Assembly (NCBI GenBank): GCA_030834125.1
Contig: JAURFW010000001.1
Location: 4,821-68,820, forward strand
From: Bacteroidota bacterium
GTDB lineage: Bacteria > Bacteroidota > Bacteroidia > NS11-12g > UBA955
Reading direction: 5' to 3'
DNA length: 64,000 nucleotides
Position numbers and translations under genes: made by a program. Within the stretch, counting starts at the first letter, position 1; the number at the start of each line of letters is the position of its first letter. Positions 502 to 15,194 of the stretch are shown in pieces. The notes under the pieces are model-generated. The model did not search any database. It saw only the letters and a program-made list of their open reading frames with translations, and had not been told where the DNA came from.

Positions 502-3500
502 CTATTTGTTTTTCAATAGCTTCTGAGAACTAAATAATTCTTCGCCAGATTCTGCATAGCCGCTCATAAAGTAAATTCCATCAGCATAACTACTCAGATC
601 AATTGGCGTTTTATCATTGCCAATTGAAACTTTTAATTCAGAAATGATTTTACCCGTGGAATTTTGAATTCTTATAAATCCATTAAAATTCGACTTCCAA
701 TAGAAAATTCCATTTGACGGATTTGGGAATATTTCCCCATGTCTAGTAATATCGTTTTTATTTACTGTTGTAAGAACTATCGTATTTGATTCTGGACTTA
801 AACATTGTTGAACGTAACTTTTTGCTGTGTAATTGCCATTATTCAATGCAATTATGTGATCTGCTTGTCCAATTTGAGTTCCGTTTAAATACCATCGTAT
901 TAAATGTCCTTGTGGCTTATTTACTAAAAATAAACTATCACCAATTCTATCGATTGTTAAAGTAGAATTATTTCCATCTATAAGGTATGTTGCTGATTTT
1001 GATTCTCTTGGAATAATACAGGTTTGATTACTGAAAGTTTTAGCGAAATAAATCCTACCATCAATCAATGCAGGTAATATTCTTAATGTATTTGATGTTT
1101 CACCAGATAATTCTTCAGGTATTGGTTGTAAAGCAGTACTGTAATACCATTGCATTGAATCATGGTATTTTGGATAAAGTGCAAGTGTAATTGTATCGTT
1201 CCAGCATGCATCAGCATTTTTTACCCCATTTACAGAATAACTAAAATCACTTAAATCCATTGGGTTTGAAGTCTTTATTCTTAAGGGAATACTATTTTCC
1301 GAATATAATAAACCCATGTGCGATCTATGCGTTATAGTGTAGTAACCAATGTTTTGTATTGTAAATTGCGCGGTATCAGACGTTGAGTCAGACATAATTA
1401 TTTGATTACTTGCATCTTTGATTATCCAAACCCACTTGTCTGCATTTTTATTTGGAGAACTTAGAACTAGATGTTCATTGGCACATAAAACACTATCATT
1501 GTAATTAAAACTAGCAATCGGAGTTCCAATTTTTGCTGTAGCCTTTAGAATTGCTTGATCTGCACATTTATTATGTGAAAAAACTTCAACCCAATATTCG
1601 TTTCCATCTATTTGTTTTGGATTGATTGTAAAAGGATTTACGTTGCTATTCGCAATTGCCGAACCGTTGGGATTACTTAGTGTTGACTTGTACCATGTCA
1701 ACGAATCAATATTACTTCCATTTGCTGTTAATTTTAAAGTACTTGATTCTGATACTAGTTTTTTACTTGTTCCGTCAATCAATACGTTAAATCCTGTAAA
1801 CGTCAAATTTACTATAGAATTTACGGTAATATTCTTGGTTTGGTCTGTACTAATACCAGAGCCGTAGGATGTAAGTTTTACAATGAAGTTTCCAGCATTA
1901 TTAAACTTAATATTTGTATTAGCTGATGTTGGCTTGCTAATTGTTACACCGGTATTTGGGTTAACCGACCAGCGTAAACTATCCACATTATTGGAGTTTG
2001 ATGTTGCAGAAATAGTGCTGCCTTGACAAGCCAAAGTGTCAGAAAAAGAAATTGTTGACACAGGGTCTTGTTTAATCCATGCATCAGAAGTAAACACCCC
2101 TCGACCGTGAGTCGTAGCCATCACTACCCCATCAGATTTTCTAAATCTTAACGCCATAGTTTTTACTGCGCCCATCCCTTCGTTACAAGCTGCCCATTTT
2201 GGAGAATTAGCATAGATATCCTCGCAAATGTAAACGCCCAATTCTGTTGCGATAAGTGCGCTTTTATTATCATATGGATTAGATACTATACTATGAACAG
2301 GCATATTTGATAAATCACCGTCTATTGCCGTCCATGTAGACCCAGCATTAATACTTCTGTAAATATTGTTTACGCCGTAGTTACTTAAAGTTACAAAGAG
2401 CGTATCATCCCCTCCATTATGATTGTAAATTGAAGAAATGCTACCAGCATTTATTCCGGTTGAAATATCAGTGAATGATGGCGAAGATGTCTCGGCGTTG
2501 TCACTGTATAATAGTTTTCCAACATCACTACCTACAATTAGCCTATTTTTATTGTTTGATTTTCTCTTATATGAATATAATGCTGATGCCTTACCAGAGC
2601 TTGAACCGCCAAAAGATATAGTGCTGGCATTACTAGAATTTTGTGTAATACTGTTTCTGTATAGTTCACCTGTTGTTTTGCCAGAATACAATATATTGTT
2701 TACATAATCTAGATCTGCAGGATTAATAAATTTACCGGTGCTTGCATCACTTAGAACCTGTACATAAGAAGACCAGTTATTTGTGGTTGCAAAAAAGTTG
2801 TTGTAAGTAAAAGACACAACATGTGTTATTTCTGAAGTTTCACTAATCATGCAATATCCCCCGTCTCCTCCAGCCAACGTTGTTTCATCGTTAATTCCAG
2901 AAATATAAAAGTATTTAGTTCCATTGTCTTGCGCTCCTGCAATCATTACATTTGAATTTTTTATCATAGACATGTCGCCACAATAAAACTGGGTTATCAT
3001 GTATCCATTGTTTTTTTCGACAAATGCTGAACTACGATTTTCTGGACTATTTGTAATATCAGAGCAATAAAACACTCCTCCATCATTTCCTATAATAATT
3101 TGCTTCCCGTCTGAATGGTATTTTATTGCGTGTTGATCCGCATGAACATAAGAGCAGCTAAGTTGGTTCATGTTAGCATTTTCAGACCATTTGCTAATTT
3201 GTTTCCAATTTGAACCAGCATTGGTGCTTCTAAATAGATTAATACCGCCAATTGTTACATCTGCAGCATTTTTTGGGTTTACACTAACTTCTAAATCATA
3301 CCAAGCTTGTCCTCTTGTGAAGTCAGTAGAAGCTATGCCATTATCAGCGTCAGAAGGTTCAGTCACAGTTGACCAATTGCTTCCTCCATTAAATGAACGA
3401 ACTACCGCATGAAGTTTCCCACCTGACTCTATGAGTGCGTAAAGTGTGTCTGCGGAGGATGGTGCACATGCTAAAGATACTCTACCTTCTAAAGCTCCAG

Positions 3501-4518
3501 AATTTTTGTATGCCTCTGTGAATGATGTGCCATTACTGCTGTAATAAATTCGTCCCCCTCCTCTATCCGACGAGCTATTTCCTGCATTTTTTCTAGTTCC
3601 AACCCAAAGTGTATTGTTAGCATCAATTTCTAAATCAGAAGGTGCGCCTGGATAATTTTGACCAGATATTTTGGGTAATACTTGTGAGAAAGAACTGCCC
3701 CCATTAGTACTTCTAAATAATCCAACGTTTGATCCATTACCATGCCATATTCCAGCAAAAAAGTTTATATCAACTGCAGCATACAGTACACTAGTTCCAC
3801 TTTCGTTCCTAACTATTATATCGTTAATATATAAATAATTAGAAGATGAGCTTAAATTACTCCATGAAGTTCCTCCATCGGTACTCTTGAAAATTCCATA
3901 TCCTCTTGAAGTGGATGAAGTTGAACCAAACCCTTCACCTGTCCCTACGTAAATTATTTTATTGTCATTAGGATCAAAAGCAATGCAGGTTACTGTTATG
4001 TTTGACCAAACATCAGATACTGATTCCCATGAACTTGTACTCGAAGTAATGTCGTTATTGTACCACAATCCACCAGTCACACCTCCAGCCCATACTTTTT
4101 TTCCTTTTGAATCATTCGGATCCCAAGCAAGAGCTCTAGTTCTTCCGCCCACATTATTTGGACCTCTCATTTTCCAAGGGAAGTTTTTAGTTCCAGGAGT
4201 GCCTCGCTTAATTACGCTATTTTTTGAATTTAGTGATGATAATAATGGAAGTAATACTTCTGGTGTAGGTCTTCCCAATTTTGGATCCATCGTAGCAATA
4301 AATTCTTGCTTCCACCATCCCAGTGGGGTTTCCTCGTTGAAATTTTTAGTCTTTATTAATTCTCTGAATGATTTGTTTAATTGCTTGTCAACTTTCTTTA
4401 CTGTTTTATGGTATTTTCTTTTAACAACCTTTTTTGTCCAATCGTTATTCGTATTTTGGGAGTATGATGAGCTAAAAAGTGTTAAGCACAATGCTAATAA
4501 TTTTATTTTATTTAACAT
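502..4518 (-). CDS. Secreted BNR/Asp-box repeat beta-propeller protein (sortilin/VPS10-like) with Ig/PKD-like modules and a T9SS type-A C-terminal sorting domain
   Basis: N-terminal signal peptide (MLNKIKLLALCLTLFSSSYSQ). Repeated SxDxGxxW boxes (STDGGTSW, STNGGSSF, SFNGGSNW, STNAGSNW, SINAGSTW). The C-terminus (IFPNPSNGIFYW...GIYFMSGY...) is typical of a Por secretion tail. Confidence 0.8.
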   Translation of the reverse strand: MLNKIKLLALCLTLFSSSYSQNTNNDWTKKVVKRKYHKTVKKVDKQLNKSFRELIKTKNFNEETPLGWWKQEFIATMDPKLGRPTPEVLLPLLSSLNSKNSVIKRGTPGTKNFPWKMRGPNNVGGRTRALAWDPNDSKGKKVWAGGVTGGLWYNNDITSSTSSWESVSDVWSNITVTCIAFDPNDNKIIYVGTGEGFGSTSSTSRGYGIFKSTDGGTSWSNLSSSSNYLYINDIIVRNESGTSVLYAAVDINFFAGIWHGNGSNVGLFRSTNGGSSFSQVLPKISGQNYPGAPSDLEIDANNTLWVGTRKNAGNSSSDRGGGRIYYSSNGTSFTEAYKNSGALEGRVSLACAPSSADTLYALIESGGKLHAVVRSFNGGSNWSTVTEPSDADNGIASTDFTRGQAWYDLEVSVNPKNAADVTIGGINLFRSTNAGSNWKQISKWSENANMNQLSCSYVHADQHAIKYHSDGKQIIIGNDGGVFYCSDITNSPENRSSAFVEKNNGYMITQFYCGDMSMIKNSNVMIAGAQDNGTKYFYISGINDETTLAGGDGGYCMISETSEITHVVSFTYNNFFATTNNWSSYVQVLSDASTGKFINPADLDYVNNILYSGKTTGELYRNSITQNSSNASTISFGGSSSGKASALYSYKRKSNNKNRLIVGSDVGKLLYSDNAETSSPSFTDISTGINAGSISSIYNHNGGDDTLFVTLSNYGVNNIYRSINAGSTWTAIDGDLSNMPVHSIVSNPYDNKSALIATELGVYICEDIYANSPKWAACNEGMGAVKTMALRFRKSDGVVMATTHGRGVFTSDAWIKQDPVSTISFSDTLACQGSTISATSNSNNVDSLRWSVNPNTGVTISKPTSANTNIKFNNAGNFIVKLTSYGSGISTDQTKNITVNSIVNLTFTGFNVLIDGTSKKLVSESSTLKLTANGSNIDSLTWYKSTLSNPNGSAIANSNVNPFTINPKQIDGNEYWVEVFSHNKCADQAILKATAKIGTPIASFNYNDSVLCANEHLVLSSPNKNADKWVWIIKDASNQIIMSDSTSDTAQFTIQNIGYYTITHRSHMGLLYSENSIPLRIKTSNPMDLSDFSYSVNGVKNADACWNDTITLALYPKYHDSMQWYYSTALQPIPEELSGETSNTLRILPALIDGRIYFAKTFSNQTCIIPRESKSATYLIDGNNSTLTIDRIGDSLFLVNKPQGHLIRWYLNGTQIGQADHIIALNNGNYTAKSYVQQCLSPESNTIVLTTVNKNDITRHGEIFPNPSNGIFYWKSNFNGFIRIQNSTGKIISELKVSIGNDKTPIDLSSYADGIYFMSGYAESGEELFSSQKLLKNK

Positions 4519-4566: not shown

Positions 4567-5724
4567 TTAATTTGTCCATGATTTATAATAATTAGGATCT
4601 TCGAGTTTAATTGCTTCCTCAGTTATCATTAATGGATAAAAAGGATCAATCATAACTGCCAATTCCAATGTTTCTTTCGCCCCGATACTCTTTTCTACGG
4701 TTCCTGGATGTGGACCATGTGGTATCCCTTTTGGGTGTAGAGTGATCATACCCTGTTCAACGTGTTTTCTGCTCATAAAATCGCCGTCAACATAATAGAG
4801 AATTTCATCACTATCTACATTGGAGTGGTTATAGGGGGCTGGGATTGATAATGGATGATAGTCAAACAACCTCGGCACAAAACTACAAATTACGAAGTTT
4901 CTTGCTTCAAAGGTTTGGTGAATTGGCGGTGGCATGTGAACTCTACCTGTAATTGGCTCGAAGTCGTGAATGCTAAAGCCAAAGGGATAAGCGTATCCAT
5001 CCCAACCTATTGCATCAAATGGGTGTGTTGCATACGTATAAGGGTACAACGCGTTCTGTTTCTTGATAATTACCTTGAAATCCCCTTCCTCATCAAAAGT
5101 TTGCAGATTTGTAGGCACTTTGATATCTCTTTCACAGTAGGGAGAATGTTCCAATAATTGACCAAATGAATTTTGATATCGTTTTGGAGGGTAAATTGGT
5201 GTAGGTGATTCTATGACTAAAATCCTATTTTCTTTATTGTCAAATTCCAATTGATAAATAGTACCTCTTGGAATAACTAAATAGTCACCATATTCAAAAC
5301 TTATCTCTCCAAAAATAGTCTTTAACTTACCCGTTCCTTTATGAATAAATAATACCTCATCACTATCGGAATTCTTAAAGAAATAATCAATCATTGATTT
5401 TCTAGGTGCTGCTGTGCCAATATGTAAATCTGAATTGAACAATAATACCTTTCTGCTTTCTAAATAGTCGTCCTCTGGGGGTACATCAAAAGTTGTGAAA
5501 CTTCTACTTAACATGTTTTTTTTAAAAGCAACCTTAGGTTCAATGTCTATTGCATCTCCTACTTCTTTAACTAATGTGGGTGGATTGCAATGATATACTA
5601 ACGAATAAAGGCTATTGAAGCCTTCAGTACTGATAAGCTCTTCAGCATACAAACTGCCATCTGGTTTTCGGAATTGTGTATGTCTTTTTGGAGGAATTTG
5701 ACCTGATTTATGATAAAATGCCAT
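4567..5724 (-). CDS. hmgA: Homogentisate 1,2-dioxygenase
   Basis: 385 aa. The N-terminus MAFYHKSGQIPPKRHTQFRKPDGSLYAEEL and the overall cupin-like pattern match the bacteroidetal short HmgA family. Confidence 0.85.
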   Translation of the reverse strand: MAFYHKSGQIPPKRHTQFRKPDGSLYAEELISTEGFNSLYSLVYHCNPPTLVKEVGDAIDIEPKVAFKKNMLSRSFTTFDVPPEDDYLESRKVLLFNSDLHIGTAAPRKSMIDYFFKNSDSDEVLFIHKGTGKLKTIFGEISFEYGDYLVIPRGTIYQLEFDNKENRILVIESPTPIYPPKRYQNSFGQLLEHSPYCERDIKVPTNLQTFDEEGDFKVIIKKQNALYPYTYATHPFDAIGWDGYAYPFGFSIHDFEPITGRVHMPPPIHQTFEARNFVICSFVPRLFDYHPLSIPAPYNHSNVDSDEILYYVDGDFMSRKHVEQGMITLHPKGIPHGPHPGTVEKSIGAKETLELAVMIDPFYPLMITEEAIKLEDPNYYKSWTN

Positions 5725-5765: not shown

Positions 5766-5812
5766 CATTCAATGTTATGAATGATTTTATTGAAGTAATA
5801 ATCATTGTTCCG

Positions 5813-5820
5813 TATATTTG
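5813..5820 (+). promoter_or_regulatory. Bacteroidota -7 promoter box (TAnnTTTG)
   Basis: TATATTTG lies 14 nt upstream of the ATG at 5835. It sits inside the TTG-extended ORF of the track, which argues for the ATG start. Confidence 0.45.
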
Positions 5821-5834
5821 ATATTTACAAACTT

Positions 5835-6752
5835 ATGCGAATAATAAAGTATATTATTATTTTATTGGTCTTATTCAGTTTTAACTTTTCATGTAAAAAA
5901 ACGGAAAACGTAACCGTAAATGATAATAACGCTCCTGATTACTCTGGTATTCCTTCCATACATATTGAAAACTACATCAACCGATTATTCATTGATCTTT
6001 TGGGTCGTGAATCCACTAATTTAGAACGAGAAACATTAACAGAAAGACTTAAAGCAGCGAATCTTGATTTTAATACGAGGGATTCTATAGTATATGAGTT
6101 GCAATTTGATACTACTTACCGTGATGGAGATTCATCATACAGGCATGCGTATTGCCAAAGAGTTTATGATTTGATGAAATTTAGATTCCTGGAAGGTGCC
6201 TCAGACCCAGAAATAGGTCAAAAGTTGGGTAATTTGAATTTCGCAATCAAAATTGCTCGGCTCAACGGTGATACAATAAGAGTCCATCAGTATGAATATG
6301 AAAAGTCAAAATATGAGAATGTCTTAAAGAGTAAATATTTCTACCGATTAGATTCCATTAGCTACAACGACATGTGTGGATATATGATGAATAATGGTAT
6401 TTATGATTTAATAAACATGGGCAGTTTTAATTTTGTTAATGCAGCATTTGATGATGTTTTGGGTAGAAATCCTACCCAAGATGAATTCACAGCAGCTTAT
6501 GAGGTTATTGATAAGAATGAACCTACTGTTGTGTTTAATAAAGTTGCATCAAATAAGAATGAATTTATTAATATCTTAGTTTATTGTGATGCATTTTACG
6601 AAGCACAAGTTAGATGGTGGTATTATCAATATGTAAGAAGAGAAATTCCACCTTCAAGCCTATATACATGGATGAATCAATATCGTAATGTACAACGATT
6701 GGAATATGTACAACGTCAAATATTAATAACCGATGAATATGCTCAGTTTTAA
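5835..6752 (+). CDS. DUF4214-like lipoprotein (first gene of the six-gene envelope operon)
   Basis: From ATG 5835 the product starts MRIIKYIIILLVLFSFNFSCKK (lipoprotein signal with Cys). Two DUF4214-type motifs are present (YINRLFIDLLGRESTNLE, FVNAAFDDVLGRNPTQDEF) and it ends ...ITDEYAQF. Confidence 0.65.
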   Translation: MRIIKYIIILLVLFSFNFSCKKTENVTVNDNNAPDYSGIPSIHIENYINRLFIDLLGRESTNLERETLTERLKAANLDFNTRDSIVYELQFDTTYRDGDSSYRHAYCQRVYDLMKFRFLEGASDPEIGQKLGNLNFAIKIARLNGDTIRVHQYEYEKSKYENVLKSKYFYRLDSISYNDMCGYMMNNGIYDLINMGSFNFVNAAFDDVLGRNPTQDEFTAAYEVIDKNEPTVVFNKVASNKNEFINILVYCDAFYEAQVRWWYYQYVRREIPPSSLYTWMNQYRNVQRLEYVQRQILITDEYAQF

Positions 6753-7230
6753 ACCGTTAACTATAATAGCACTTATCACATCTTTACTAATTAGTTGCAC
6801 ACGAGAAATAAACGTAGATTATGGAGTAAATGATGTTGCTATTTATGAAACAAAAGCGCAAAAACATAAAGCAAAAAATGAGGCAGAATATATAGCCATT
6901 TTGTATACTAATTTAACACAGGAAGCAATTTCGCCTAATCTGTTATATCAAACACAAAATGTAATGTACTCTATTGGAGATCAAAATGTTGCTAAAGAAA
7001 TGCTACTTAGTAATTACTTCAATTCTCAAAATTTAAAAATTCCTTCTGATGTTGAAATGCGACTAAACGTTGAGCAATTTGTTATAGCTACCTATAAACG
7101 TTTCTTACTTAGACTTCCAAGTGAAGCAGAAAAGCAATGGTTCATCAGATATATTGAAAATAATTCAAATGTTACTGTCGAAATGGTTTACACAGCATTT
7201 GCCGCTTCAGATGAGTATGGATTTTATTAA
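6733..7230 (+). CDS. DUF4214-like lipoprotein
   Basis: Lipoprotein signal ...ITSLLISCTRE. The segment FVIATYKRFLLRLPSEAEKQWFIRYIENNSNVTVEMVYTAFAASDEYGFY follows the DUF4214 pattern. It overlaps the upstream gene by 20 nt. Confidence 0.65.
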   Translation: MNMLSFKPLTIIALITSLLISCTREINVDYGVNDVAIYETKAQKHKAKNEAEYIAILYTNLTQEAISPNLLYQTQNVMYSIGDQNVAKEMLLSNYFNSQNLKIPSDVEMRLNVEQFVIATYKRFLLRLPSEAEKQWFIRYIENNSNVTVEMVYTAFAASDEYGFY

Positions 7231-8579
7231 TGAGATCTAATATGAAGAGAAAAGAATTTATCAAAAAATCAGCAATTACCTTGGGCGGTGCATTAGTTGG
7301 TCCATATATTCTTCCCTCGGGTAGATTGTTTGCTAGAACGGGAGCAGAAAAAGCAGCGCACGTTGTTATGGTTATGTTTGCCGGCGGAGTGAGGCAGCAA
7401 GAATCTGTTCTAGGTAGATATTTAGAGGATAGTCAAGGAGTTTCAGGGGCTGCTGGAAATATAATGCCCAATTTATTTACAGGAAATGCACCAACAAAAA
7501 AAGTAGTTTATGGTTTAGATATCCCGGGTGAACCTAAAGGAACAGATCCAATTCCTAGAATTGTATCCTCTCCCCTAGCTTCCCAAGGTTTAGTGTTTAA
7601 TGAAGTTACGGCTCAAAGCGCGGGCCATTATGTTGGGTTAAATACTTTAATAACCGGTTCTAGAGGAATTGCTCAAGGTTTGAAAGTTCGCCCTAAGTCC
7701 CCTACTGTATTTGAATATTTGAGAAAACATCGGGGATTTGCTGCGACAGATTGTTGGTTTTTAGGAAACGGCATTGGTAATTCAACACCATTGTTAAATT
7801 CAAGTGATAATCTAGATTATGGATTAGATTATGGTGCTAATATGTTTATTCCTCCAGTAACATTTGGCAGTTTTGGTAGGACCGTATTAAGTAATGCAAA
7901 GCCCTATTCTAATTTAGAACTTGAACCAATGTACAATATGAAGTCCTTCTTGGATCAGAGTTTTGCATTAGAGAAGTCTTTACAAACAACAATAAAAAAT
8001 ACTGATGAAGAGAGAACACGTGTAAAAGCGTTTATAAGGAATACCTACACCAAACAATCTCTTGGTCAAATTGCATATCCACCATCAGGAAGTGGAGGAG
8101 ATGCCGTAAATGTAGCCTATGCAGGCGAAATACTTAAGGAATTTAAACCTAGAATGTTGGCATTAAATCTATCTCAAGTTGATGGTTGTCATTCCAATTT
8201 TACTGGGTATTTAAGAAGTTTACACAGAGCCGATCACATTGTAGGTTGGTTGTGGGAGTTCATCCAAAGTATTCCGGAAATGAAGGATAATACGATAATT
8301 ATTGTAGCTCCTGAGTGCGGTAGAAATTTAAATCCAAATCCAATTTTAGATGAGAATGATTGGTTAGCATTTGATCATTCTGATCGAAATGCAATGCGAG
8401 TTTGGAGCGTGATGGTAGGTAAAAATGTTCCTCAATTGTCGGTTGGAGATGAAGACAATCCCGTAGGTAGGTTAACTGATATTGTTCCAACCATAGCTGA
8501 TATTTTTGGGGTCTATGAAGAAGTTATGGGTAGTGGATATATCGATCCATTAGCAATGAGTCAGTTCTTAAGAGTTTAA
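7230..8579 (+). CDS. DUF1501-like protein (alkaline phosphatase/sulfatase superfamily) with a Tat-like signal
   Basis: The ATG overlaps the upstream stop (TAATG). The N-terminus is MKRKEFIKKSAITLGGALVG (Tat-like, KRK instead of RR). VVMVMFAGGVRQQ, QVDGCHSNF and APECGRNLNPN...FDHSD resemble DUF1501 metal-site motifs. Confidence 0.6.
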   Translation: MRSNMKRKEFIKKSAITLGGALVGPYILPSGRLFARTGAEKAAHVVMVMFAGGVRQQESVLGRYLEDSQGVSGAAGNIMPNLFTGNAPTKKVVYGLDIPGEPKGTDPIPRIVSSPLASQGLVFNEVTAQSAGHYVGLNTLITGSRGIAQGLKVRPKSPTVFEYLRKHRGFAATDCWFLGNGIGNSTPLLNSSDNLDYGLDYGANMFIPPVTFGSFGRTVLSNAKPYSNLELEPMYNMKSFLDQSFALEKSLQTTIKNTDEERTRVKAFIRNTYTKQSLGQIAYPPSGSGGDAVNVAYAGEILKEFKPRMLALNLSQVDGCHSNFTGYLRSLHRADHIVGWLWEFIQSIPEMKDNTIIIVAPECGRNLNPNPILDENDWLAFDHSDRNAMRVWSVMVGKNVPQLSVGDEDNPVGRLTDIVPTIADIFGVYEEVMGSGYIDPLAMSQFLRV

Positions 8580-8581
8580 TA

Positions 8582-9517
8582 ATGAAAATTACAAAAATTG
8601 TCATATTGCCAATGTTGTGTTTTGTATTTCAGTCCTGCGAAAGATCAATAGACACAGGGGAAAATCCATACTCCAATATTGAGGATAATACAACTGAAAC
8701 CAATGACACTAATACCTATGACCCCTATTCTATTTTTGGGTTACATAAGGATATATTCTTACCAACTTGTGCCAATTCTGGTTGCCACGACGGGACCTTT
8801 GAACCTGATTTCAGAACAGTAGAGAGTAGTTATTATAGCTTGGTATGGCAATCTCCAATAAAGAATGATACAAATTATTCATATGAATATCGTGTAGATC
8901 CCGGTAATTCCACTGAGAGTATGCTAATGCATCGATTAACTGTAGATTTAAATGGTAATTCAGGTATAATGCCTCTCGGGCTAGAACAAGACTCGGATTA
9001 TCCTGAAAAAAAAGATGAATACATTAATCGAATAGAAACATGGATAAATAATGGGGCTCCGGATTTTTATGGAAACAAGCCTCAATCTGCAAACTTTCCT
9101 CCAGTTGTGAATGGAGTGATAATTTTTCAAAATGGTTCAATAAAAAATAGAATTGGTATTTATGAAGCAGTAGATGTAAATATTGGTTCAAATGTGCAAA
9201 TGTGGTTTTCCTTTACCGATGATAAAATGGATGCTAGAAATTTTACCAATGCAACTTATAATGTGAGCACTAGGCCTGATTCTTTTGATTTGAACTCTGA
9301 AAAAGCACTCATTTTGGGTAATAAACAAACACTTAATGGCTTGTTTGGAGCGCAAGTGGATTACGACTGGTATGCAGATATTGATGTTAGTCAAGCCAAG
9401 GAATTAGATGTTTACTACGTACGTGTTACATTAAACGACGGTGATGAGACTGTCCAAATCCCAAACCAGTTTTCCATGTTTCAGATGAAGAAATACTTTG
9501 CAATTAGATTTAATTAA
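8582..9517 (+). CDS. Lipoprotein with a PSCyt-like (planctomycete cytochrome-c-like) domain carrying CX4CH
   Basis: Lipobox FVFQSCE. The segment IFLPTCANSGCHDG...PGNSTESMLMHRL...IMPLG...INRIETWINNGAP parallels the PSCyt1 layout (C..CH ... pG..e.S.L ... MP ... WI..GA). The C-terminal half looks like a beta-sandwich. Confidence 0.5.
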   Translation: MKITKIVILPMLCFVFQSCERSIDTGENPYSNIEDNTTETNDTNTYDPYSIFGLHKDIFLPTCANSGCHDGTFEPDFRTVESSYYSLVWQSPIKNDTNYSYEYRVDPGNSTESMLMHRLTVDLNGNSGIMPLGLEQDSDYPEKKDEYINRIETWINNGAPDFYGNKPQSANFPPVVNGVIIFQNGSIKNRIGIYEAVDVNIGSNVQMWFSFTDDKMDARNFTNATYNVSTRPDSFDLNSEKALILGNKQTLNGLFGAQVDYDWYADIDVSQAKELDVYYVRVTLNDGDETVQIPNQFSMFQMKKYFAIRFN

Positions 9518-9958
9518 ATGAGGTTAAGTATTTTATTTTCCATGCTATTGATGATTATTTTATCGTGTAAAGACGATTTAATTAAATCCGGTGATCCTCA
9601 ACCCAAAATTCAATTCATTTCAATTAATCCTAATTCAGTTATTCAATTTCAAGATAGCGTTGTAATTACTATATCCTATGAGGATGGAGACGGAGATCTT
9701 GGTGATTATTCTGCTGATTCATTATCAATAAGTATTAGGGATACTCGGTTGTTAAAACCAGATTTTTATCATCTTAAACCATTAGCTCCTAAGGATGCCA
9801 ATATCAAAATCAAGGGTCAATTAGATATTAAACTTAAAAACCTATTTCTATTGGGGCAAGGAAAAGCAGAACAAACCCAGTTCGAAATAAAATTAAAGGA
9901 TAGAAATCAAAACTGGAGTAATACGGTAACTTCATCAACTATTGCTATTAATCGATAA
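9518..9958 (+). CDS. Small Ig-like lipoprotein, function unknown
   Basis: The ATG directly abuts the upstream stop. Lipobox MIILSCKDD is present, with a beta-rich sequence and the motif ISYEDGDGDLGD. Confidence 0.55.
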   Translation: MRLSILFSMLLMIILSCKDDLIKSGDPQPKIQFISINPNSVIQFQDSVVITISYEDGDGDLGDYSADSLSISIRDTRLLKPDFYHLKPLAPKDANIKIKGQLDIKLKNLFLLGQGKAEQTQFEIKLKDRNQNWSNTVTSSTIAINR

Positions 9959-9961
9959 TAA

Positions 9962-12900
9962 TTGAGAATTTCTAGGATTCTAAATATTGTAATTTTACTA
10001 TTAGGGATATTAAAAATTCCTTTAAATTCTTATGCGCAAACTCCAATGCAAAATGGTATATTTAGAATTTGCAATGGAAAAATAACTGATTCTGAAGAAG
10101 GCGATAATACTGGATATTATGATCATAATGAAAATTATATTATGACTTTATCAATGCCAGGCGCCAAGTCTATAAGTTTGAAATTTAATGCTTTTTGTAC
10201 TGAGTTAGATAATGATATACTTTCAATTTTTGATGGAAAGGATACGAATGCTACTCTAATTGGCCGTTATAGCGGCAGTTCCGGACCATCTACCGTTAAA
10301 AGTACCGATAGTTTTATTACTTTGCACTTTATTTCAGATAAATCAGTGGCATGTACTGGTTGGGATGCACAGGTAATAAATGATATCATCCCTCCTACTG
10401 CAGCAAAATTTTCAATCAAATCCGTTATTAATTGTCTTGATAGTGTTATTGATATTTTATTAGATAAGTTTATTGTTTGTGATTCATTTAATATATACAA
10501 TACAGATATTAATGGATTGACTATCAAATCAATAAATCCATTTAACTCATCAGATACTTTAAGTAATCGGTTTTTAATATCTATAGATGGTGGAATTCAG
10601 AAAAACGGAACATATACAATAAATCATACACATGGGTATCGTGATTATTGCGACAGTGTTTATTTTTTAAACTCAAAGCTGAATTTCTCAATTAAAGATT
10701 GTCCCATTTTTGTCGAATTAACATCTACTGCAGATACTATATGTAGAGGTGATTGTATCCGATTGTCAGCATCAGCAACTGGAGGACAATCTAGTCTTTA
10801 TAAATACAAATGGAATTTATCTTCAATCCCAGATACATCAATATGGGATTTCTGTCCTACTGCGACGACCAATGTAGTTGTTACTGTCTCCGATGGAAAT
10901 GCAATTCCAGATTCCGATTCTATAACTATAGTAGTTTTAGACCCACCAAAGGCACAAAATGATACCCAGTTGTGTTATTATGGTGATAATATTTTACTTA
11001 AAGCTTCTCCATCTGGTGGGTATTGGACTGGTCCGGGAATAGTTGATTCAAAAAAAGGAGAGTTTAAACCTTATGGTCAGTGGGGTTATAAGAGTGTAGT
11101 TTATCATATTGGAGATTGTACAGATACTGTTGTGATATATGTGTATCGACCCTATTGCTATGAAAATGTTTTTTGCCCAGGCAATACTCCGCTTCCCGTT
11201 TATTGGTATGGCCCTCCAGGTGGTTATTGGACCGGAGAAAATATTGACTCTATTGGAAGATATTTACCAGACTCTTCAGGAACTTTTACTGTTACCTATC
11301 ATTGGCAGGGTTGTTCGGCAGACAAGACTATAGTGGTTGAAGAAATTGATGTTCCTGCTTTCGATACTACCTGTGAGTCAGTAATTAGAGATACTTTAAA
11401 TTTTGAACCTAAAGGATTAATTCCATCATATTTTAAGGGGATTGTAAATTATTATTGGGGATGGTATAACCCAAGTATGATGGGTGGTCCAGGTAATTAT
11501 AATATTGTTTACAGAGGTCGCGGCAGTTGTAGTGACACTACTCAACTTACGGTATTACCTTGTTATGCAGGATTGGATGATACGATTTGTCCTTCTGTTG
11601 CAGCTCAAAAGCTTACAGGTTTTCGTGCATCTCCAGGTTATTTATGGGAAGGTTTGGGTATTGTTGATCCTAAATCTGGGATTTACGATCCATCTTTTAC
11701 TAAAAATGATTATGTAGATACCCTGGTTTTAAAAACTAAATTCTGTACAGACACTAAGCTCGTTTATATAATTAACACTAGAATTGAAATGCCGGATACA
11801 CTAGAAGTATGTAACGATTGGGATAGTGTTGATCTATCTAATATATTTAAAACTAGTGTTCCTGGTGGTGTTTGGAGTGGAATTACTGTTAAGTTCGGGA
11901 AATGGTTTTATCCAAATAAATTATCTCCGGGATATTATTCTGTAGGGTATAAAAAGAATAATTGTGAAGATTTTGCCACTATTAAAGTTCTACCAGCCCC
12001 GTTAATTATGAATGATACTCACCTTTGCGAAGATGTTAATTATTTGAATTTACTTAGTAAGGAACCGGGAAAGTATTATGGTGACTATATTTGGGGCAAT
12101 AGCATGCAAAGATTTTATCCGAAATCAGCGGGTAAAGGTTTACATGAAATTGGCTTTTTATCAGATCGGGGTTGTAGAGATACAATGTTAGTTCTACTCG
12201 ATAGTTTAACTACAATTGATAAGACCCAATTACCTTCTGTATTATGTTTTAATAGCAGTGTTTACAATCCAGTTATTAAACCATTGGGAGGAAAATATAT
12301 TATTAATTTGGATACTTTTAGTAATTGGATTACTTCAAATTGGGGAAGTGGGAATCATCTAGTAAAATATCATTATTCTGAGGGCCTATGCATCTCTAAG
12401 GATTCTTTTACAGTAAAAGTATTAGATACGTTGAAGGTAATACCCATTATATCTGATGATAGTGTTTGTTATGGTGAAAGCATAGTACTGCAAGCAAACG
12501 GATTTGGGGGTAACGGCAATTACACTTTCGATTGGTCTCATGGTCAATCAGGCGCAAAGGTTTTTGCTAATCCATCCCAGAACACCAACTATATAGTAAC
12601 TATAAGTGATGGATGCAGTGATAATGATAATGATGAAATTGATGTTGTTATACACCCAAGAATGTGGCTAGATTGTATAACTAGTGCACCAGTTTGTTAT
12701 GGAAATAATGGATTTATATACGTTCAACTGCAAAGTGGAAATGAATCCGAAATAATATGGGATTACCCAGGAATAATTGTAAATGATACTTTTTTTGCCC
12801 CAAGTGGTTCTTGGTATAAGGCATTTATAAGCGATGCTGAAACAGGATGTTTTACCGATACAAATATTTACATTGATGGATTTTCAGCAGTACAGGCTGA

Positions 12901-13435
12901 TTTCATTCTTCCTCCACCAATTTCCGGTAATTGCTATTCCCCGTTGGATAAATCGATAGTAATTTCTGATGCATCTTTAGGAGCCAGCAAAGGGCAATGG
13001 ATATTAAACGGTCAATATTTTGCAGATTATTCAGTTAACCCATCTCCTATTGTTGGATTCGATGCAAATTTATCAACGCATAGTATAGAATTAATTGTAG
13101 AAAATGATGGAGGATGTAAAGATACTGCAAATAAAAATGTATGTTTTCGCGATACAGTAATCATTTATATGCCCAATGCATTCTCACCAGATGGAAACAG
13201 TCTCAATGATGAATATAAATGGTTTACAGTTGGTGCAACGGAAGTTAATGTATTAGTATATAACCGATGGGGTGAAATCGTTTTTGAAAGCAAAGATGTA
13301 AATGGCTCATGGGATGGTTGTTATAAAAATGTGGATTGTCCAGAAGGAGTGTATTTGGTTTATATTGAATATCGAGGTAATAAAAAGGCAAGAAGACAAA
13401 AAGTTCAATCGGTTCTTTTGATGAGGGATAAATAA
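9962..13435 (+). CDS. 1157-aa surface protein: N-terminal CUB-like domain, Cys-rich Ig-like repeats, T9SS type-B (gliding-motility-associated) C-terminal domain
   Basis: TTG start 3 nt after the upstream stop, with a signal peptide ending ...LNSYAQ. A CUB-like block spans aa 37-138. The C-terminus PNAFSPDGNSLNDEY...VYNRWGEIVFES...WDG...GVYLVYIEY matches the type-B CTD consensus. Confidence 0.75.
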   Translation: MRISRILNIVILLLGILKIPLNSYAQTPMQNGIFRICNGKITDSEEGDNTGYYDHNENYIMTLSMPGAKSISLKFNAFCTELDNDILSIFDGKDTNATLIGRYSGSSGPSTVKSTDSFITLHFISDKSVACTGWDAQVINDIIPPTAAKFSIKSVINCLDSVIDILLDKFIVCDSFNIYNTDINGLTIKSINPFNSSDTLSNRFLISIDGGIQKNGTYTINHTHGYRDYCDSVYFLNSKLNFSIKDCPIFVELTSTADTICRGDCIRLSASATGGQSSLYKYKWNLSSIPDTSIWDFCPTATTNVVVTVSDGNAIPDSDSITIVVLDPPKAQNDTQLCYYGDNILLKASPSGGYWTGPGIVDSKKGEFKPYGQWGYKSVVYHIGDCTDTVVIYVYRPYCYENVFCPGNTPLPVYWYGPPGGYWTGENIDSIGRYLPDSSGTFTVTYHWQGCSADKTIVVEEIDVPAFDTTCESVIRDTLNFEPKGLIPSYFKGIVNYYWGWYNPSMMGGPGNYNIVYRGRGSCSDTTQLTVLPCYAGLDDTICPSVAAQKLTGFRASPGYLWEGLGIVDPKSGIYDPSFTKNDYVDTLVLKTKFCTDTKLVYIINTRIEMPDTLEVCNDWDSVDLSNIFKTSVPGGVWSGITVKFGKWFYPNKLSPGYYSVGYKKNNCEDFATIKVLPAPLIMNDTHLCEDVNYLNLLSKEPGKYYGDYIWGNSMQRFYPKSAGKGLHEIGFLSDRGCRDTMLVLLDSLTTIDKTQLPSVLCFNSSVYNPVIKPLGGKYIINLDTFSNWITSNWGSGNHLVKYHYSEGLCISKDSFTVKVLDTLKVIPIISDDSVCYGESIVLQANGFGGNGNYTFDWSHGQSGAKVFANPSQNTNYIVTISDGCSDNDNDEIDVVIHPRMWLDCITSAPVCYGNNGFIYVQLQSGNESEIIWDYPGIIVNDTFFAPSGSWYKAFISDAETGCFTDTNIYIDGFSAVQADFILPPPISGNCYSPLDKSIVISDASLGASKGQWILNGQYFADYSVNPSPIVGFDANLSTHSIELIVENDGGCKDTANKNVCFRDTVIIYMPNAFSPDGNSLNDEYKWFTVGATEVNVLVYNRWGEIVFESKDVNGSWDGCYKNVDCPEGVYLVYIEYRGNKKARRQKVQSVLLMRDK

Positions 13436-13459: not shown

Positions 13460-14995
13460 GTGATTGCTTCTCATTGGGTATATAGAATTTGGGCAGAACA
13501 ATATTTATCGCCATTAATTGATACAAAATTTGATCTTGGAATAAGTTTTAGTTCGGATTTATTAAGCCTGAAATTTAGTTCAAATGATTTATTACATTTT
13601 ATTGATTGTAAGTGGGTTGATGGTGAGCTATTGCTTTCTAATGGAAATGAAATCAAGGAGTCGTCTAAAAATAAAAAGAATGCGCTCGTTCAATTAAAAG
13701 CATTAAATGGAGAGATTGTAAAATCTGTTTCACTAATGTTCTTAGATCGCTTGGTTAGGATCGACTTCTCCAATAACTTTAAACTTGTTTTTAAAGGCTT
13801 CGGAAGATTTTCAAACGTTATTTTATTAGGGTCTAATAATTCAGTGGTTCAAGTTTTTCGTTTAAATTTTAAGGAAGATTGGAATTTTATCCTTGACGAA
13901 AATGATGAGCGGTGGTGGGAATTAAATAAACCAATTAATCCTACTGCTTTGAAGGAATATCTTATTAAATTTAAAAATATTATATCAAAAGATGAAGTTT
14001 TCTGGGATTGCTTTGATTTTAATAAATTCTTTGAAAGTTACGCCAATTTGGATATGAAATTTCAATATTCAAATGGCAAAATAGAACTAGTTGAATATGG
14101 TATAGAAATATCAAAAAAATCAGTTTTTGAAAATATCGATAAGATTATAAAACAATTAGTTAAGGCATATTACTTCAATAGTAAATATAGATTATTAAAA
14201 ACTGATTTAATAAAGAAGTTAACAAAGTTAAATTCGTACAACACAGGTCTTCAACAACAAAGGTCTATTTTGCAAGAAAGAAGAAGTTATAAAGAAATTG
14301 GAGATCTTGTAATGAGCAATGCTCACAGTATTAAAAAAGGGGTTTCAGAAGCATTGATAACTGATTATTTTACAGGTAATCGAATAAGGATAAAGCTAAA
14401 TAAAGAACTTACTGCTTCTCAGAATGCTGAGAAGTTTTACAAAAAGGCGAAAAATGAGTCTTTAGAATTGGCTGCAATTGAAGAGAAATTGAACAATACG
14501 GCGGAATTAATCTCTAAAACGAATAATGATCTAGAAGAACTAAGTAAAGTTACAACACTTACAGATTTTCAAAATCTGAAATTCTCTTTAAAAGAGAAAG
14601 CTGCGAGTCCTGGAAAACAAAACCAGTCTACAGCTAGGAAATATTCATGGAATGGAATTGAATTTTGGGTTGGTAAAAATGCAAAGAGTAATGATTGGAT
14701 CCTCAGAAATGCTACAAAAAATGATATTTGGATGCATGCATCTGGTGTTGCGGGTTCTCATGGATTAATTAGAAAAATCAATTTATCACAATTGAAAAAT
14801 AAAGACCTAGAAATAGCGGCAAGCATTACAGCATTCTATTCGAAAGGTAAAAATCAAGCGTTGCAAACAGTAATGTATGCAGAACGAAAGTTTGTATCAA
14901 AGATAAAAGGCGGTAATGCAGGACAGGTTAAGGTTCAAAAATGGGAGACCATAGATGTTGAACCGAAGGATTTTGTAAAATTTATTCAATCGTAA
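13460..14995 (+). CDS. NFACT-family RNA-binding protein (RqcH/FbpA-like, DUF814)
   Basis: The C-terminal GIEFWVGKNAKSNDWILRNATKNDIWMHASGVAGSHGLIRK is the NFACT-R/DUF814 signature, preceded by a coiled-coil middle and an NFACT-N-like N-terminus. The GTG start is assumed. Confidence 0.7.
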   Translation: MIASHWVYRIWAEQYLSPLIDTKFDLGISFSSDLLSLKFSSNDLLHFIDCKWVDGELLLSNGNEIKESSKNKKNALVQLKALNGEIVKSVSLMFLDRLVRIDFSNNFKLVFKGFGRFSNVILLGSNNSVVQVFRLNFKEDWNFILDENDERWWELNKPINPTALKEYLIKFKNIISKDEVFWDCFDFNKFFESYANLDMKFQYSNGKIELVEYGIEISKKSVFENIDKIIKQLVKAYYFNSKYRLLKTDLIKKLTKLNSYNTGLQQQRSILQERRSYKEIGDLVMSNAHSIKKGVSEALITDYFTGNRIRIKLNKELTASQNAEKFYKKAKNESLELAAIEEKLNNTAELISKTNNDLEELSKVTTLTDFQNLKFSLKEKAASPGKQNQSTARKYSWNGIEFWVGKNAKSNDWILRNATKNDIWMHASGVAGSHGLIRKINLSQLKNKDLEIAASITAFYSKGKNQALQTVMYAERKFVSKIKGGNAGQVKVQKWETIDVEPKDFVKFIQS

Positions 14996-15109: not shown

Positions 15110-15184
15110 GGGAGCTTAGCTCAGTTGGTTCAGAGCATCTGCCTTACAAGCAGAGGGTCACAGGTTCGAATCCTGTAGCTCCCA
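15110..15184 (+). tRNA. tRNA-Val (anticodon TAC)
   Basis: A 75-nt cloverleaf folded by hand. Acceptor stem GGGAGCT/AGCTCCC and D stem GCTC/GAGC. Anticodon stem TCTGC/GCAGA with loop CTTACAA. T arm ACAGG-TTCGAAT-CCTGT and discriminator A. CCA is not encoded. Confidence 0.92.
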
Positions 15185-15194
15185 CAAAAAAAAA

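Follow-up and report, generated by a model that had tools for sequence, protein, structure and literature searches.

A 64-kb stretch of a contig from a Bacteroidota bacterium (JAURFW010000001.1; this whole stretch is called the window here, and its numbering is used for all coordinates) carries six plus-strand open reading frames (ORFs), labeled g1 to g6, between positions 5835 and 13435. Together they form one strongly conserved operon of exported envelope proteins. With modest confidence, we lean toward reading this operon as the form taken in Bacteroidota by the PSCyt/DUF1501-type module known from Planctomycetes, Verrucomicrobia, and other phyla, a form in which the partner of an alkaline-phosphatase-fold protein is split into separate lipoproteins. 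On this reading, the helical parts of the partner would correspond to g1 and g2 and its heme-c-like and immunoglobulin (Ig)-like parts to g4; g5 would be a small protein with a calcium-type motif, and g3 would be the enzyme-like protein. An earlier interpretation made from the DNA letters without database searches (the sequence-only reading) had put the operon forward as an undescribed system. It is indeed a real operon that is poor in known families, but it seems best seen as a split variant of a known, unexplained module.

Operon architecture and conservation

The ORFs agree with the sequence-only reading in strand, packing, and junctions: going from g1 to g6, the first two junctions are overlaps of 20 nucleotides (nt) and 1 nt, and at the other three the genes are separated by 2, 0, and 3 nt. 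The start codon of g1 is the ATG at 5835 (an alternative TTG upstream, at 5805, is less likely), and that of g6 is TTG. Most g3 orthologs begin at the equivalent of M5 (giving proteins of 445 to 446 amino acids [aa]), so that g2 and g3 may be separated by 11 nt instead of overlapping at TAATG.

Conservation was assessed by scanning one genome per species for relatives of g3. Such a relative was present in 461 species, and the best 80 of these, all of them uncultured Bacteroidota represented by metagenome-assembled genomes, were used for the comparisons of loci. In the 83 related loci from these 80 species, tblastn searches with the six proteins showed an unchanged gene order, with no gene missing, on every contig of sufficient length, and all six ORFs were complete in 56 loci. 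The geometry of the junctions was kept as well: in 73 of 74 loci, the overlap of g1 and g2 measures between 14 and 26 nt, and the median spacing is -1 nt at both g3/g4 and g4/g5. The synteny anticipated across Bacteroidota genomes was thereby borne out, with a fixed order over 80 species, as was the proposal of a single, tightly packed operon of exported proteins. The flanking genes change with distance, so that the six-gene block represents the conserved unit in the window's clade. The carriers have small (~2 Mb) genomes with one copy of the operon per locus; nearly all of those found are uncultured, and the source genomes were obtained mostly from freshwater and marine samples.

A Bacteroidota-type -7 promoter box precedes g1 (Table 1). 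Among orthologous loci, 49 of 72 have a TAnnTTTG in the 80 nt ahead of g1, compared with 3.8% of background 80-nt windows. Across the window, which is AT rich, the motif is found at chance frequency (83 occurrences versus 98.6 expected). The box at 5813 is therefore supported by its position, given the enrichment upstream of g1 in orthologous loci, and not by the motif itself. This conserved position upholds part of the earlier claim of a single box ahead of the operon, but the word "single" is not literally true, because six further plus-strand copies lie inside the operon. In the orthologous loci, the motif is almost never located upstream of g2, g3, g5, or g6. It is located upstream of g4 in 20 of 77 loci, and the corresponding match in the window (8501 to 8508) lies inside g3, 74 nt before g4. 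We ruled out this site as an internal promoter; it consists of the codons GAT ATT TTT GG of a conserved DIFG peptide of g3 and is probably a by-product of coding. Within the operon, sites resembling terminators or sigma-70 promoters showed no excess over the shuffled expectation.

Relatives with high G+C content and the PSCyt/DUF1501-type module

The link between the operon and the PSCyt/DUF1501-type module runs through distant relatives of g3. A metagenome scan seeded with five sequences of such relatives yielded 80 loci, of which ~50 have a G+C content of 57 to 75% and are therefore not Bacteroidota-like. The g3 relatives in these high-G+C loci are reached by the superfamily profile at E values of 1e-99 to 1e-123. 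The upstream sequence was sufficient in 31 of the high-G+C loci, and in 18 of these, the g3 relative is immediately preceded by a same-strand ORF that matches the g1 or g2 profile (best E value, 1.2e-12). Ten of these partner ORFs were tested against Pfam models, and all ten matched PSCyt2 (DUF1549), with five exceeding the gathering score. In the same ten ORFs, DUF4214 scored above the gathering score in two, and there were weaker matches to PBS_linker_poly, PSD1, and DUF1800 (best match, 24.8 bits versus a cutoff of 26.1); some of the partners also contain PKD.

Single proteins encoded just ahead of g3 relatives in high-G+C loci unite cytochrome-c-like, PKD, and PSCyt2/DUF4214 parts. In locus L130, the partner combines three N-terminal cytochrome-like modules (CX2CH, CX3CH, and CX4CH) with PKD and helical repeats, and its third module (RRCALPDCHGG...WILEGA) can be set beside that of a g4 homolog (TRCALPGCHDG...WIMNGA). 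The domain inventory of a single partner protein (i.e., cytochrome-like, Ig/PKD-like, and helical repeats) equals that of g4, g1, and g2 taken together. In L106, L107, and L109, a multiheme c7-like protein is encoded directly downstream of the g3 relative (the Pfam scan covered the L106 protein; the ORF of the other two loci is nearly identical to it, equal in size, and shares its CxxCH site). Locus L126 (9642 to 13286) encodes a 1,214-aa fusion of two PSCyt1 domains, TPR, and a degenerate g3-like domain, the last of which has lost the GGxR, H, ExGR, and DH positions; an intact g3 relative is located ~6 kb away. A further apparent fusion of g1-like, g3-like, and multiheme parts (P0349; 997 aa) was not counted, as it reads like a frameshifted high-G+C contig, and the neighborhood that it displays is also shown by separate genes in L106, L107, and L109.

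The module that joins DUF1501 to PSCyt1, PSCyt2, and PSD1 and carries a Tat (twin-arginine translocation) motif has no assigned function (Kamneva et al. 2012, PMC3542564; He et al. 2017, PMC5615132). It was singled out in 2012 as a conserved machine of unknown function (PMC3542564), and no later functional work on it was found in the literature searched. In its form in the Planctomycetes-Verrucomicrobia-Chlamydiae (PVC) group (i.e., in Planctomycetes, Verrucomicrobia, and Lentisphaerae), as in the operon, an alkaline-phosphatase-fold protein with a Tat signal (Tat-like in the operon) is encoded directly after its partner; the partner is made up of cytochrome-c-like, Ig/carbohydrate-binding-like, and "LGRxPTxxE" helical parts; every product is exported; and the linkage is strongly conserved. 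The operon differs in that g3 is not a Pfam DUF1501 protein, the partner is split into four lipoproteins, and the motif is CX4CH and not CXXCH, without detection by PSCyt models. It also has an added DGDGDLG lipoprotein (g5) and, in this clade, a CUB surface protein (g6) exported by the type IX secretion system (T9SS), and it occurs once per locus, in Bacteroidota with small genomes, unlike the dozens of paralogs of the PVC module. The pairs of DUF1800 and DUF1501 genes found in Proteobacteria, Bacteroidota, and PVC bacteria, the function of which is also unknown, similarly place a helical PBS-linker-like partner upstream of a Tat-exported alkaline-phosphatase fold. In the operon, however, that position is taken by two short lipoproteins without a DUF1800 match, and a cytochrome-like subunit is added. 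The idea of a miniature PSCyt/DUF1549/DUF1800 plus DUF1501 pairing, which formed part of the sequence-only reading, thus finds indirect support in the high-G+C partners, which match both the g1/g2 profiles and PSCyt2, DUF4214, and DUF1800, but hidden Markov model (HMM) searches with the window proteins themselves fail to recover it.

Alkaline-phosphatase-fold protein g3

The most conserved protein of the operon is g3, the orthologs of which are 56 to 80% identical over the 80 species. Its AlphaFold model (predicted local distance difference test [pLDDT] score, 81; predicted template-modeling [pTM] score, 0.82) matched >400 Protein Data Bank (PDB) chains of the alkaline-phosphatase superfamily at E values of ≤1e-3 in a Foldseek search (best E value, 3e-9), at template-modeling (TM) scores of 0.35 to 0.43. 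Matches with E values of 1e-9 to 1e-7 comprise type I sulfatases, nucleotide pyrophosphatases/phosphodiesterases (NPP), Escherichia coli alkaline phosphatase, PafA, MCR-1, and LtaS-type proteins. The α/β core fold of the model is that of clan CL0088 (alkaline phosphatases, NPP, and sulfatases), and the model bears out the superfamily assignment that had been proposed from the letters. At the sequence level, g3 of the window has no Pfam or NCBIfam match, and its single-sequence search against the PDB returned noise or nothing. The g3 family, which comprises at least 1,573 clusters at 90% identity, lacks a Pfam model, and its cluster members are named only "hypothetical protein." When 38 family members were scanned singly, Sulfatase was matched twice and TAT_signal three times, always below the threshold. 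Remote relatives of g3 weakly match Sulfatase, Phosphodiest, Metalloenzyme, and DUF1501, some of them with a weak TAT_signal match.

Eleven residues are invariant in g3 (R55, H133, D291, D318, H321, H332, D335, E362, R365, D382, and H383). The features kept across the whole superfamily are the Tat motif RRxF(LK), GGxR after strand 1, H133, D318-x-x-H321, D335, E362-x-G-R365, and D382-H383. Among these, D318, H321, D335, E362, D382, and H383 are candidate metal ligands. The canonical nucleophile position was assigned to residue 130 from the secondary structure of the model and not from a residue-level structural alignment. Ser occupies this position in 22 sequences, Asn in 14, and Thr in 2; it is followed by G or A at 131 and by the invariant G132 and H133. 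The conserved Ser/Thr/Cys (formylglycine) nucleophile of the superfamily is therefore not found at this position, and the C/S-x-P-x-R motif is absent from the g3 sequence. The label "metallo-hydrolase," which had been given to g3, is unproven, since the assigned nucleophile residue is not conserved. With the enzymes of the superfamily, g3 shares the fold, the presence of DxxH and DH where metal ligands usually sit, and the PF01663 matches of its sister subfamily. It differs from them in the lack of a conserved nucleophile, the invariant Arg of GGVR after strand 1, the presence of E-x-G-R after the central strand, where D-H is usual, and the low TM scores given above.

A near-invariant Cys pair, C320 (in VDGCH) and C363 (in PECGR), is limited to the g3 subfamily of the window; other subfamilies have Ala and His at the two positions (DxAH and PEHGR). 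The two residues look like a co-varying pair beside the putative metal ligands and may form a disulfide or alter metal coordination. The N terminus of g3 is Tat-like, as the sequence-only reading had it, but the diagnostic dipeptide is R-R in only 41 of 82 orthologs and R-K in the other 41, including the window. The segment that follows the Tat-like motif (PYILPSGRLFA) is conserved far beyond what is usual for a signal peptide.

CX4CH lipoprotein g4

The CX4CH motif of g4 is invariant in 33 aligned homologs and in all 77 full-length orthologs, none of which contains CXXCH. In each of the 77, an MP dipeptide occurs within 110 aa of the CX4CH His (at an offset of 61 to 62 aa in 72 and of 37 aa in 5), and W[ILVM]xxG[ACS] is present in 76. 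We take this layout (CX4CH ... MP ... WIxxGA) to be that of a class I c-type cytochrome, and the N-terminal domain reads as heme-c-like, with a candidate heme site. The AlphaFold model (pLDDT, 82) consists of a helical N-terminal domain and a C-terminal Ig-like sandwich. It is least confident at residues 64 to 67 (the CX4CH loop) and 125 to 127 (just before the Met), and low confidence at the CX4CH loop is as expected if a cofactor is missing from the model. Foldseek matched only the β-sandwich. Neither a single-sequence nor a profile search of g4 gave a Pfam, NCBIfam, or PDB sequence match. The homologs of g3 and of g4 each fall into on the order of at least 1,000 clusters, and g3, g4, and g5 are all without any family model.

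A second kind of CX4CH protein (121 to 127 aa; CTQTSCH ... MPPGG ... WLEKGA) is encoded ~7 kb downstream of a Bacteroidota-type module in two loci (L159, 19968 to 20333; L160, 11430 to 11813). Its presence points to CX4CH cytochrome-like domains as a recurring element of these genomes.

Helical lipoproteins g1 and g2

The Cys residue of the lipobox is invariant in the alignments of g1 (C20), g2 (C22), g4 (C19), and g5 (C17), in agreement with the four lipoprotein signals noted earlier. The description of g1 and g2 as DUF4214-like holds at the family level. DUF4214 is matched by 21 of 31 g1 orthologs (best E value, 6e-7) and by 22 of 31 g2 orthologs (best E value, 8e-5). The g1 orthologs also match PBS_linker_poly (14/31) and, below the threshold, PSCyt2 (10/31) and PSD1 (3/31), and g2 orthologs show weak, subthreshold PSD1 matches. 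The description does not hold for the window proteins taken singly: g1 has no significant Pfam match, DUF4214 included, and g2 scores 19.3 bits against DUF4214 (PF13946), below the cutoff of 23.2. DUF1800 was matched by neither g1 nor g2 nor their orthologs. Searches of the PDB with family profiles gave only weak phycobilisome-linker matches for g1 and nothing relevant for g2, and a PHROGs scan of g1 to g5 returned nothing meaningful. Although both proteins match DUF4214, we do not claim that g1 and g2 are paralogs of each other, as hhalign of their profiles aligned only the signal peptides.

Surface protein g6 and the five-gene core

As the sequence-only reading had stated, g6 combines a Sec signal, a CUB domain, and a T9SS type-B C-terminal domain; CUB and CHU_C both score above the Pfam cutoffs (Table 1), whereas TIGR04131 gives 34.6 against a cutoff of 35. 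The N terminus (MRISRILNIVILLLGILKIPLNSYAQ) is signal-like, and with CHU_C at the extreme C terminus, g6 is a predicted T9SS type-B cargo. Its orthologs are 32 to 48% identical and, in the window's clade, always the last in the operon. The protein has 32 conserved Cys residues, and its best-conserved block is CUB, which is also called in the orthologs. For g5, no Pfam or PDB match was obtained, including by profile search. Its motif Y-x-D-G-D-G-D-L-G (9677 to 9703), in which D56, D60, and G62 are invariant and at least 90% of sequences share D58 and G59, suggests a calcium-binding loop of the DxDxDG type. The C-K-D-D sequence after its lipobox resembles a surface-export signal.

Two other groups of loci define the extent of the conserved unit. 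The first is a sister subfamily of g3 in Bacteroidota with ~1,600 clusters, some of which have precomputed PF01663 matches and some members of which are named "alkaline phosphatase family protein" by their sources. Its loci L084, L085, and L086 contain homologs of g1 to g5 in the same order (profile E values, 1e-32 to 1e-122) and lack g6. Their g4 proteins keep the CX4CH (CALPGCH, CNNPGCH, and CAVSGCH) and the MP. The conserved core therefore comprises g1 to g5, and g6 is an accessory of some clades; the supposed hard-wiring of the operon to a giant T9SS adhesin applies to those clades only. The second group is a low-G+C variant (~31 to 33% G+C; L153, L155 to L157, L161, L162, and L164), several members of which come from ocean samples. 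This variant keeps g6, here with CUB, MAM (a gain), PKD, and CHU_C, and has two genes inserted between g1 and g2 (L156, 7055 to 9489), one for a 350-aa protein of no known family and the other for a 456-aa Alginate_exp-like outer membrane β-barrel.

Neighboring genes

A homogentisate 1,2-dioxygenase-like gene (HgmA_N; 4567 to 5724, minus strand) is divergent from the operon and shares with it an intergenic region of 110 nt; such a gene occupies the same upstream position in 25 of 56 related loci. Downstream, an NFACT/RqcH-like gene (NFACT_N, NFACT-R_1, and NFACT-R_2; 13460 to 14995, plus strand) starts with a GTG 24 nt after the stop codon of g6 and is probably cotranscribed with the operon by read-through. 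It was ruled out as a seventh member, since its product is cytoplasmic by family and only 28 of 56 related loci have it behind g6; it is absent from this position in more distant ones, where ribosomal protein genes or mevalonate-pathway genes flank the operon instead. Neither the operon nor its recurrent neighbors include SusC, SusD, a glycoside hydrolase, or a regulator, and no SprF/PorP-like gene is adjacent to the operon.

Further upstream (502 to 4518, minus strand), the window encodes a 1,338-aa Sortilin/VPS10-like protein with a T9SS type-A C-terminal domain (Por_Secre_tail), that is, a second T9SS cargo near the type-B one; 16 of 56 loci also have it upstream of the operon. A tRNA-Val gene (anticodon TAC; 15110 to 15185, plus strand) is the sole RNA family match in the window.

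Table 1. Features of the g1 to g6 operon
Feature	Coordinates	Strand	Description
-7 promoter box TATATTTG	5813..5820	+	Bacteroidota type; 15 nt before the g1 ATG; read directly
g1	5835..6752	+	305-aa lipoprotein; helical DUF4214/PBS-linker/PSCyt2-like repeats with "LGRxPTxxE" units
g2	6733..7230	+	165-aa lipoprotein; C-terminal DUF4214-like domain; starts 20 nt inside g1
g3	7230..8579	+	449 aa (or 445 aa from M5 at 7242); Tat-like signal; alkaline-phosphatase-superfamily fold; putative catalytic subunit
Tat-like motif K-R-K-E-F of g3	7245..7259	+	Family consensus, K-R-R-E-F
g4	8582..9517	+	311-aa lipoprotein; helical cytochrome-c-like domain (~48 to 160) and Ig-like β-sandwich (~175 to 311)
CX4CH motif C63-ANSG-C68-H69 of g4	8768..8788	+	Candidate covalent heme-binding site
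M130-P131 of g4	8969..8974	+	Candidate axial Met ligand; followed by helix ending in WINNGA
g5	9518..9958	+	146-aa lipoprotein; no known family
g6	9962..13435	+	1,157 aa; Sec signal; Cys-rich multidomain surface protein; T9SS type-B C-terminal domain
CUB domain of g6 (residues 52 to 137)	10115..10372	+	PF00431, 45.9 bits versus cutoff of 21.4; E value, 8e-12
T9SS type-B sorting domain of g6 (residues 1070 to 1144)	13169..13393	+	PF13585 (CHU_C), 51.4 bits versus cutoff of 27; E value, 1e-13

Proposed mechanism and alternative explanations

If the operon is a split PSCyt/DUF1501-type module, its products could work together as follows. The g3 protein would fold in the cytoplasm, possibly with a metal, and would be exported in the folded state, probably by Tat (or by Sec where the dipeptide is R-K). 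The lipoproteins g1, g2, and g4 would tether it at the periplasmic face of a membrane, where its His/Asp/Arg pocket, lacking the usual covalent nucleophile, may act on a small anionic group, of a phosphoryl- or sulfuryl-like kind, that is carried by a substrate. The heme-like domain of g4 would move electrons to or from this reaction or, alternatively, sense a ligand. In clades that have g6, this surface protein, with g5 as a possible adaptor, would bind the source of the substrate. The electron-transfer part of this scheme is tentative, and we rather doubt that it is correct in detail. More speculative still is the proposal that g3 and g4 form a new type of enzyme, with a nucleophile-less alkaline-phosphatase-fold subunit and a c-type heme held at CX4CH, in which electron transfer is coupled to phosphorus or sulfur oxyanion or ester chemistry (e.g., oxidation of reduced phosphorus or the reductive or oxidative cleavage of an ester); this we regard as a long shot.

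Several results weigh against the reading of the operon as a split module. A search of g3 of the window with DUF1501 (PF07394; gathering score, 27 bits) gave nothing at an E value of ≤1. In the individual scans, DUF1501 was matched by one of the 38 family members (E value, 0.034), and the sister family reaches PF01663 instead. The "DUF1501-like" label of the sequence-only reading is therefore not retained. The remote g3 relative P0269 scored 17.1 bits over 29 residues against DUF1501. A genuine DUF1501 gene, sought among the fetched loci as the basis for a comparison profile, was not found there. The g3 family profile retrieved only 855 proteins from 1.8 billion representatives, presumably fewer than expected if DUF1501, which we take to be a large family, were within reach of HMMER. 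For g4, the earlier description as a PSCyt-like CX4CH lipoprotein survives in its invariant CX4CH and lipobox but not in its family name, as no PSCyt model, including PSCyt1 (PF07635), matched g4 or any of the 33 homologs at an E value of ≤10; the same search detects PSCyt1 in the L126 fusion at 79.6 bits. Heme binding by g4 is predicted from motifs. The profile of its N-terminal domain did not match the cytochrome modules among the ORFs of the high-G+C loci (hmmsearch --max), and hhalign of this domain against the cytochrome modules of L130 was weak (probability, 9%; E value, 0.004). Given these two results, the argument for homology between g4 and the PSCyt1-type modules comes from the order of their motifs. 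The g3 protein could be noncatalytic, because residue 130 varies among S, N, and T, and its export by Tat is uncertain, because the window and half of the orthologs carry R-K. Finally, the lipoproteins have a K-(D/E)-rich stretch after the lipobox Cys; since such a stretch can signal surface exposure in Bacteroidota, they may be located on the surface, apart from a periplasmic g3.

Purely hydrolytic nutrient scavenging is the alternative that fares best, although we consider it unlikely. Here, g3 would be a metal-dependent phospho- or sulfoesterase acting on dissolved organic matter, the CX4CH of g4 would be structural or metal binding without heme, and g6 would capture polymers or particles, in the manner of a polysaccharide utilization locus without SusC or SusD. 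The fold of g3, the best structural matches of which are sulfatases, NPP, and PafA-type phosphatases, is what such a function would call for, and the PF01663 matches and "alkaline phosphatase family protein" names of the sister family, the mostly freshwater and marine origin of the genomes, and the Alginate_exp-like barrel of the marine variant, which fits substrate import, point the same way. The resemblance to polysaccharide utilization loci extends to the surface binding protein(s), the lipoproteins, the periplasmic enzyme-like protein, and the marine variant's own outer membrane barrel; unlike those loci, the operon has no SusC/SusD, and its surface protein is a T9SS cargo and not a lipoprotein. 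Simple hydrolysis is harder to reconcile with a residue 130 that is not a conserved Ser, Thr, or Cys and with the G-G-V-R, its Arg invariant, at the first metal-ligand position after strand 1. Nor does it readily explain the recurrent cytochrome-type partners in distant relatives or the absolute conservation of C, C, H, and M in g4.

It is less probable still, and in our view quite improbable, that the operon is a structural or assembly module of the cell surface, in which a noncatalytic g3 and the lipoproteins anchor, mature, or regulate g6 or another envelope component. An analogy exists in PbgA/YejM of Enterobacteria, a noncatalytic alkaline-phosphatase-fold protein. The nonconserved nucleophile position of g3 is consistent with such a role, as are the constant last place of g6 in the window's clade and its well-conserved CUB block. 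Moreover, cargos with a type-B C-terminal domain need dedicated partners (SprB/SprF), and no SprF/PorP-like gene is adjacent. However, the large sister subfamily has the g1 to g5 core without g6, a two-gene form exists outside the Bacteroidota, where the T9SS is absent, and the most conserved protein is g3, whose numerous invariant His, Asp, and Arg positions are typical of an active site. Least credible is a convergent or superficial resemblance to the PVC module, with the operon as an unrelated, lineage-specific system that combines common envelope folds: the failure of all direct HMM tests of the window proteins against DUF1501 and PSCyt1/2/3, the 9% hhalign result for the g4 N-terminal domain, and the low TM scores of g3 would fit it, but it is opposed by the sequence bridges from the superfamily profile to the high-G+C relatives, by the matches of the g1/g2 profiles to upstream partners that are bona fide PSCyt2/DUF4214 proteins, and by the gene order (partner, then alkaline-phosphatase-like protein) and Tat-type signal common to both.

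Implications

Few gene sets of Planctomycetes and Verrucomicrobia are as highly multiplied as the modules that pair PSCyt/DUF1549/DUF1553 with DUF1501 and DUF1800 with DUF1501. If the operon is indeed a split variant of the PSCyt/DUF1501-type module, it represents a single-copy version in which each gene encodes one domain, and the module would not be specific to PVC bacteria but would extend to the Bacteroidota. Should the redox reading of g3 and g4 be true, it would explain hundreds of PSCyt/DUF1501-type pairs in Planctomycetes and Verrucomicrobia. The practical value of the operon is limited, as its carriers are nearly all uncultured. The PVC proteins are multidomain, 800 to 1,200 aa long, and present as dozens of paralogs, and they are therefore harder to question. 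In the operon, the parts are separate, small, and highly conserved proteins, which makes the questions of heme, catalysis, and contacts tractable here.

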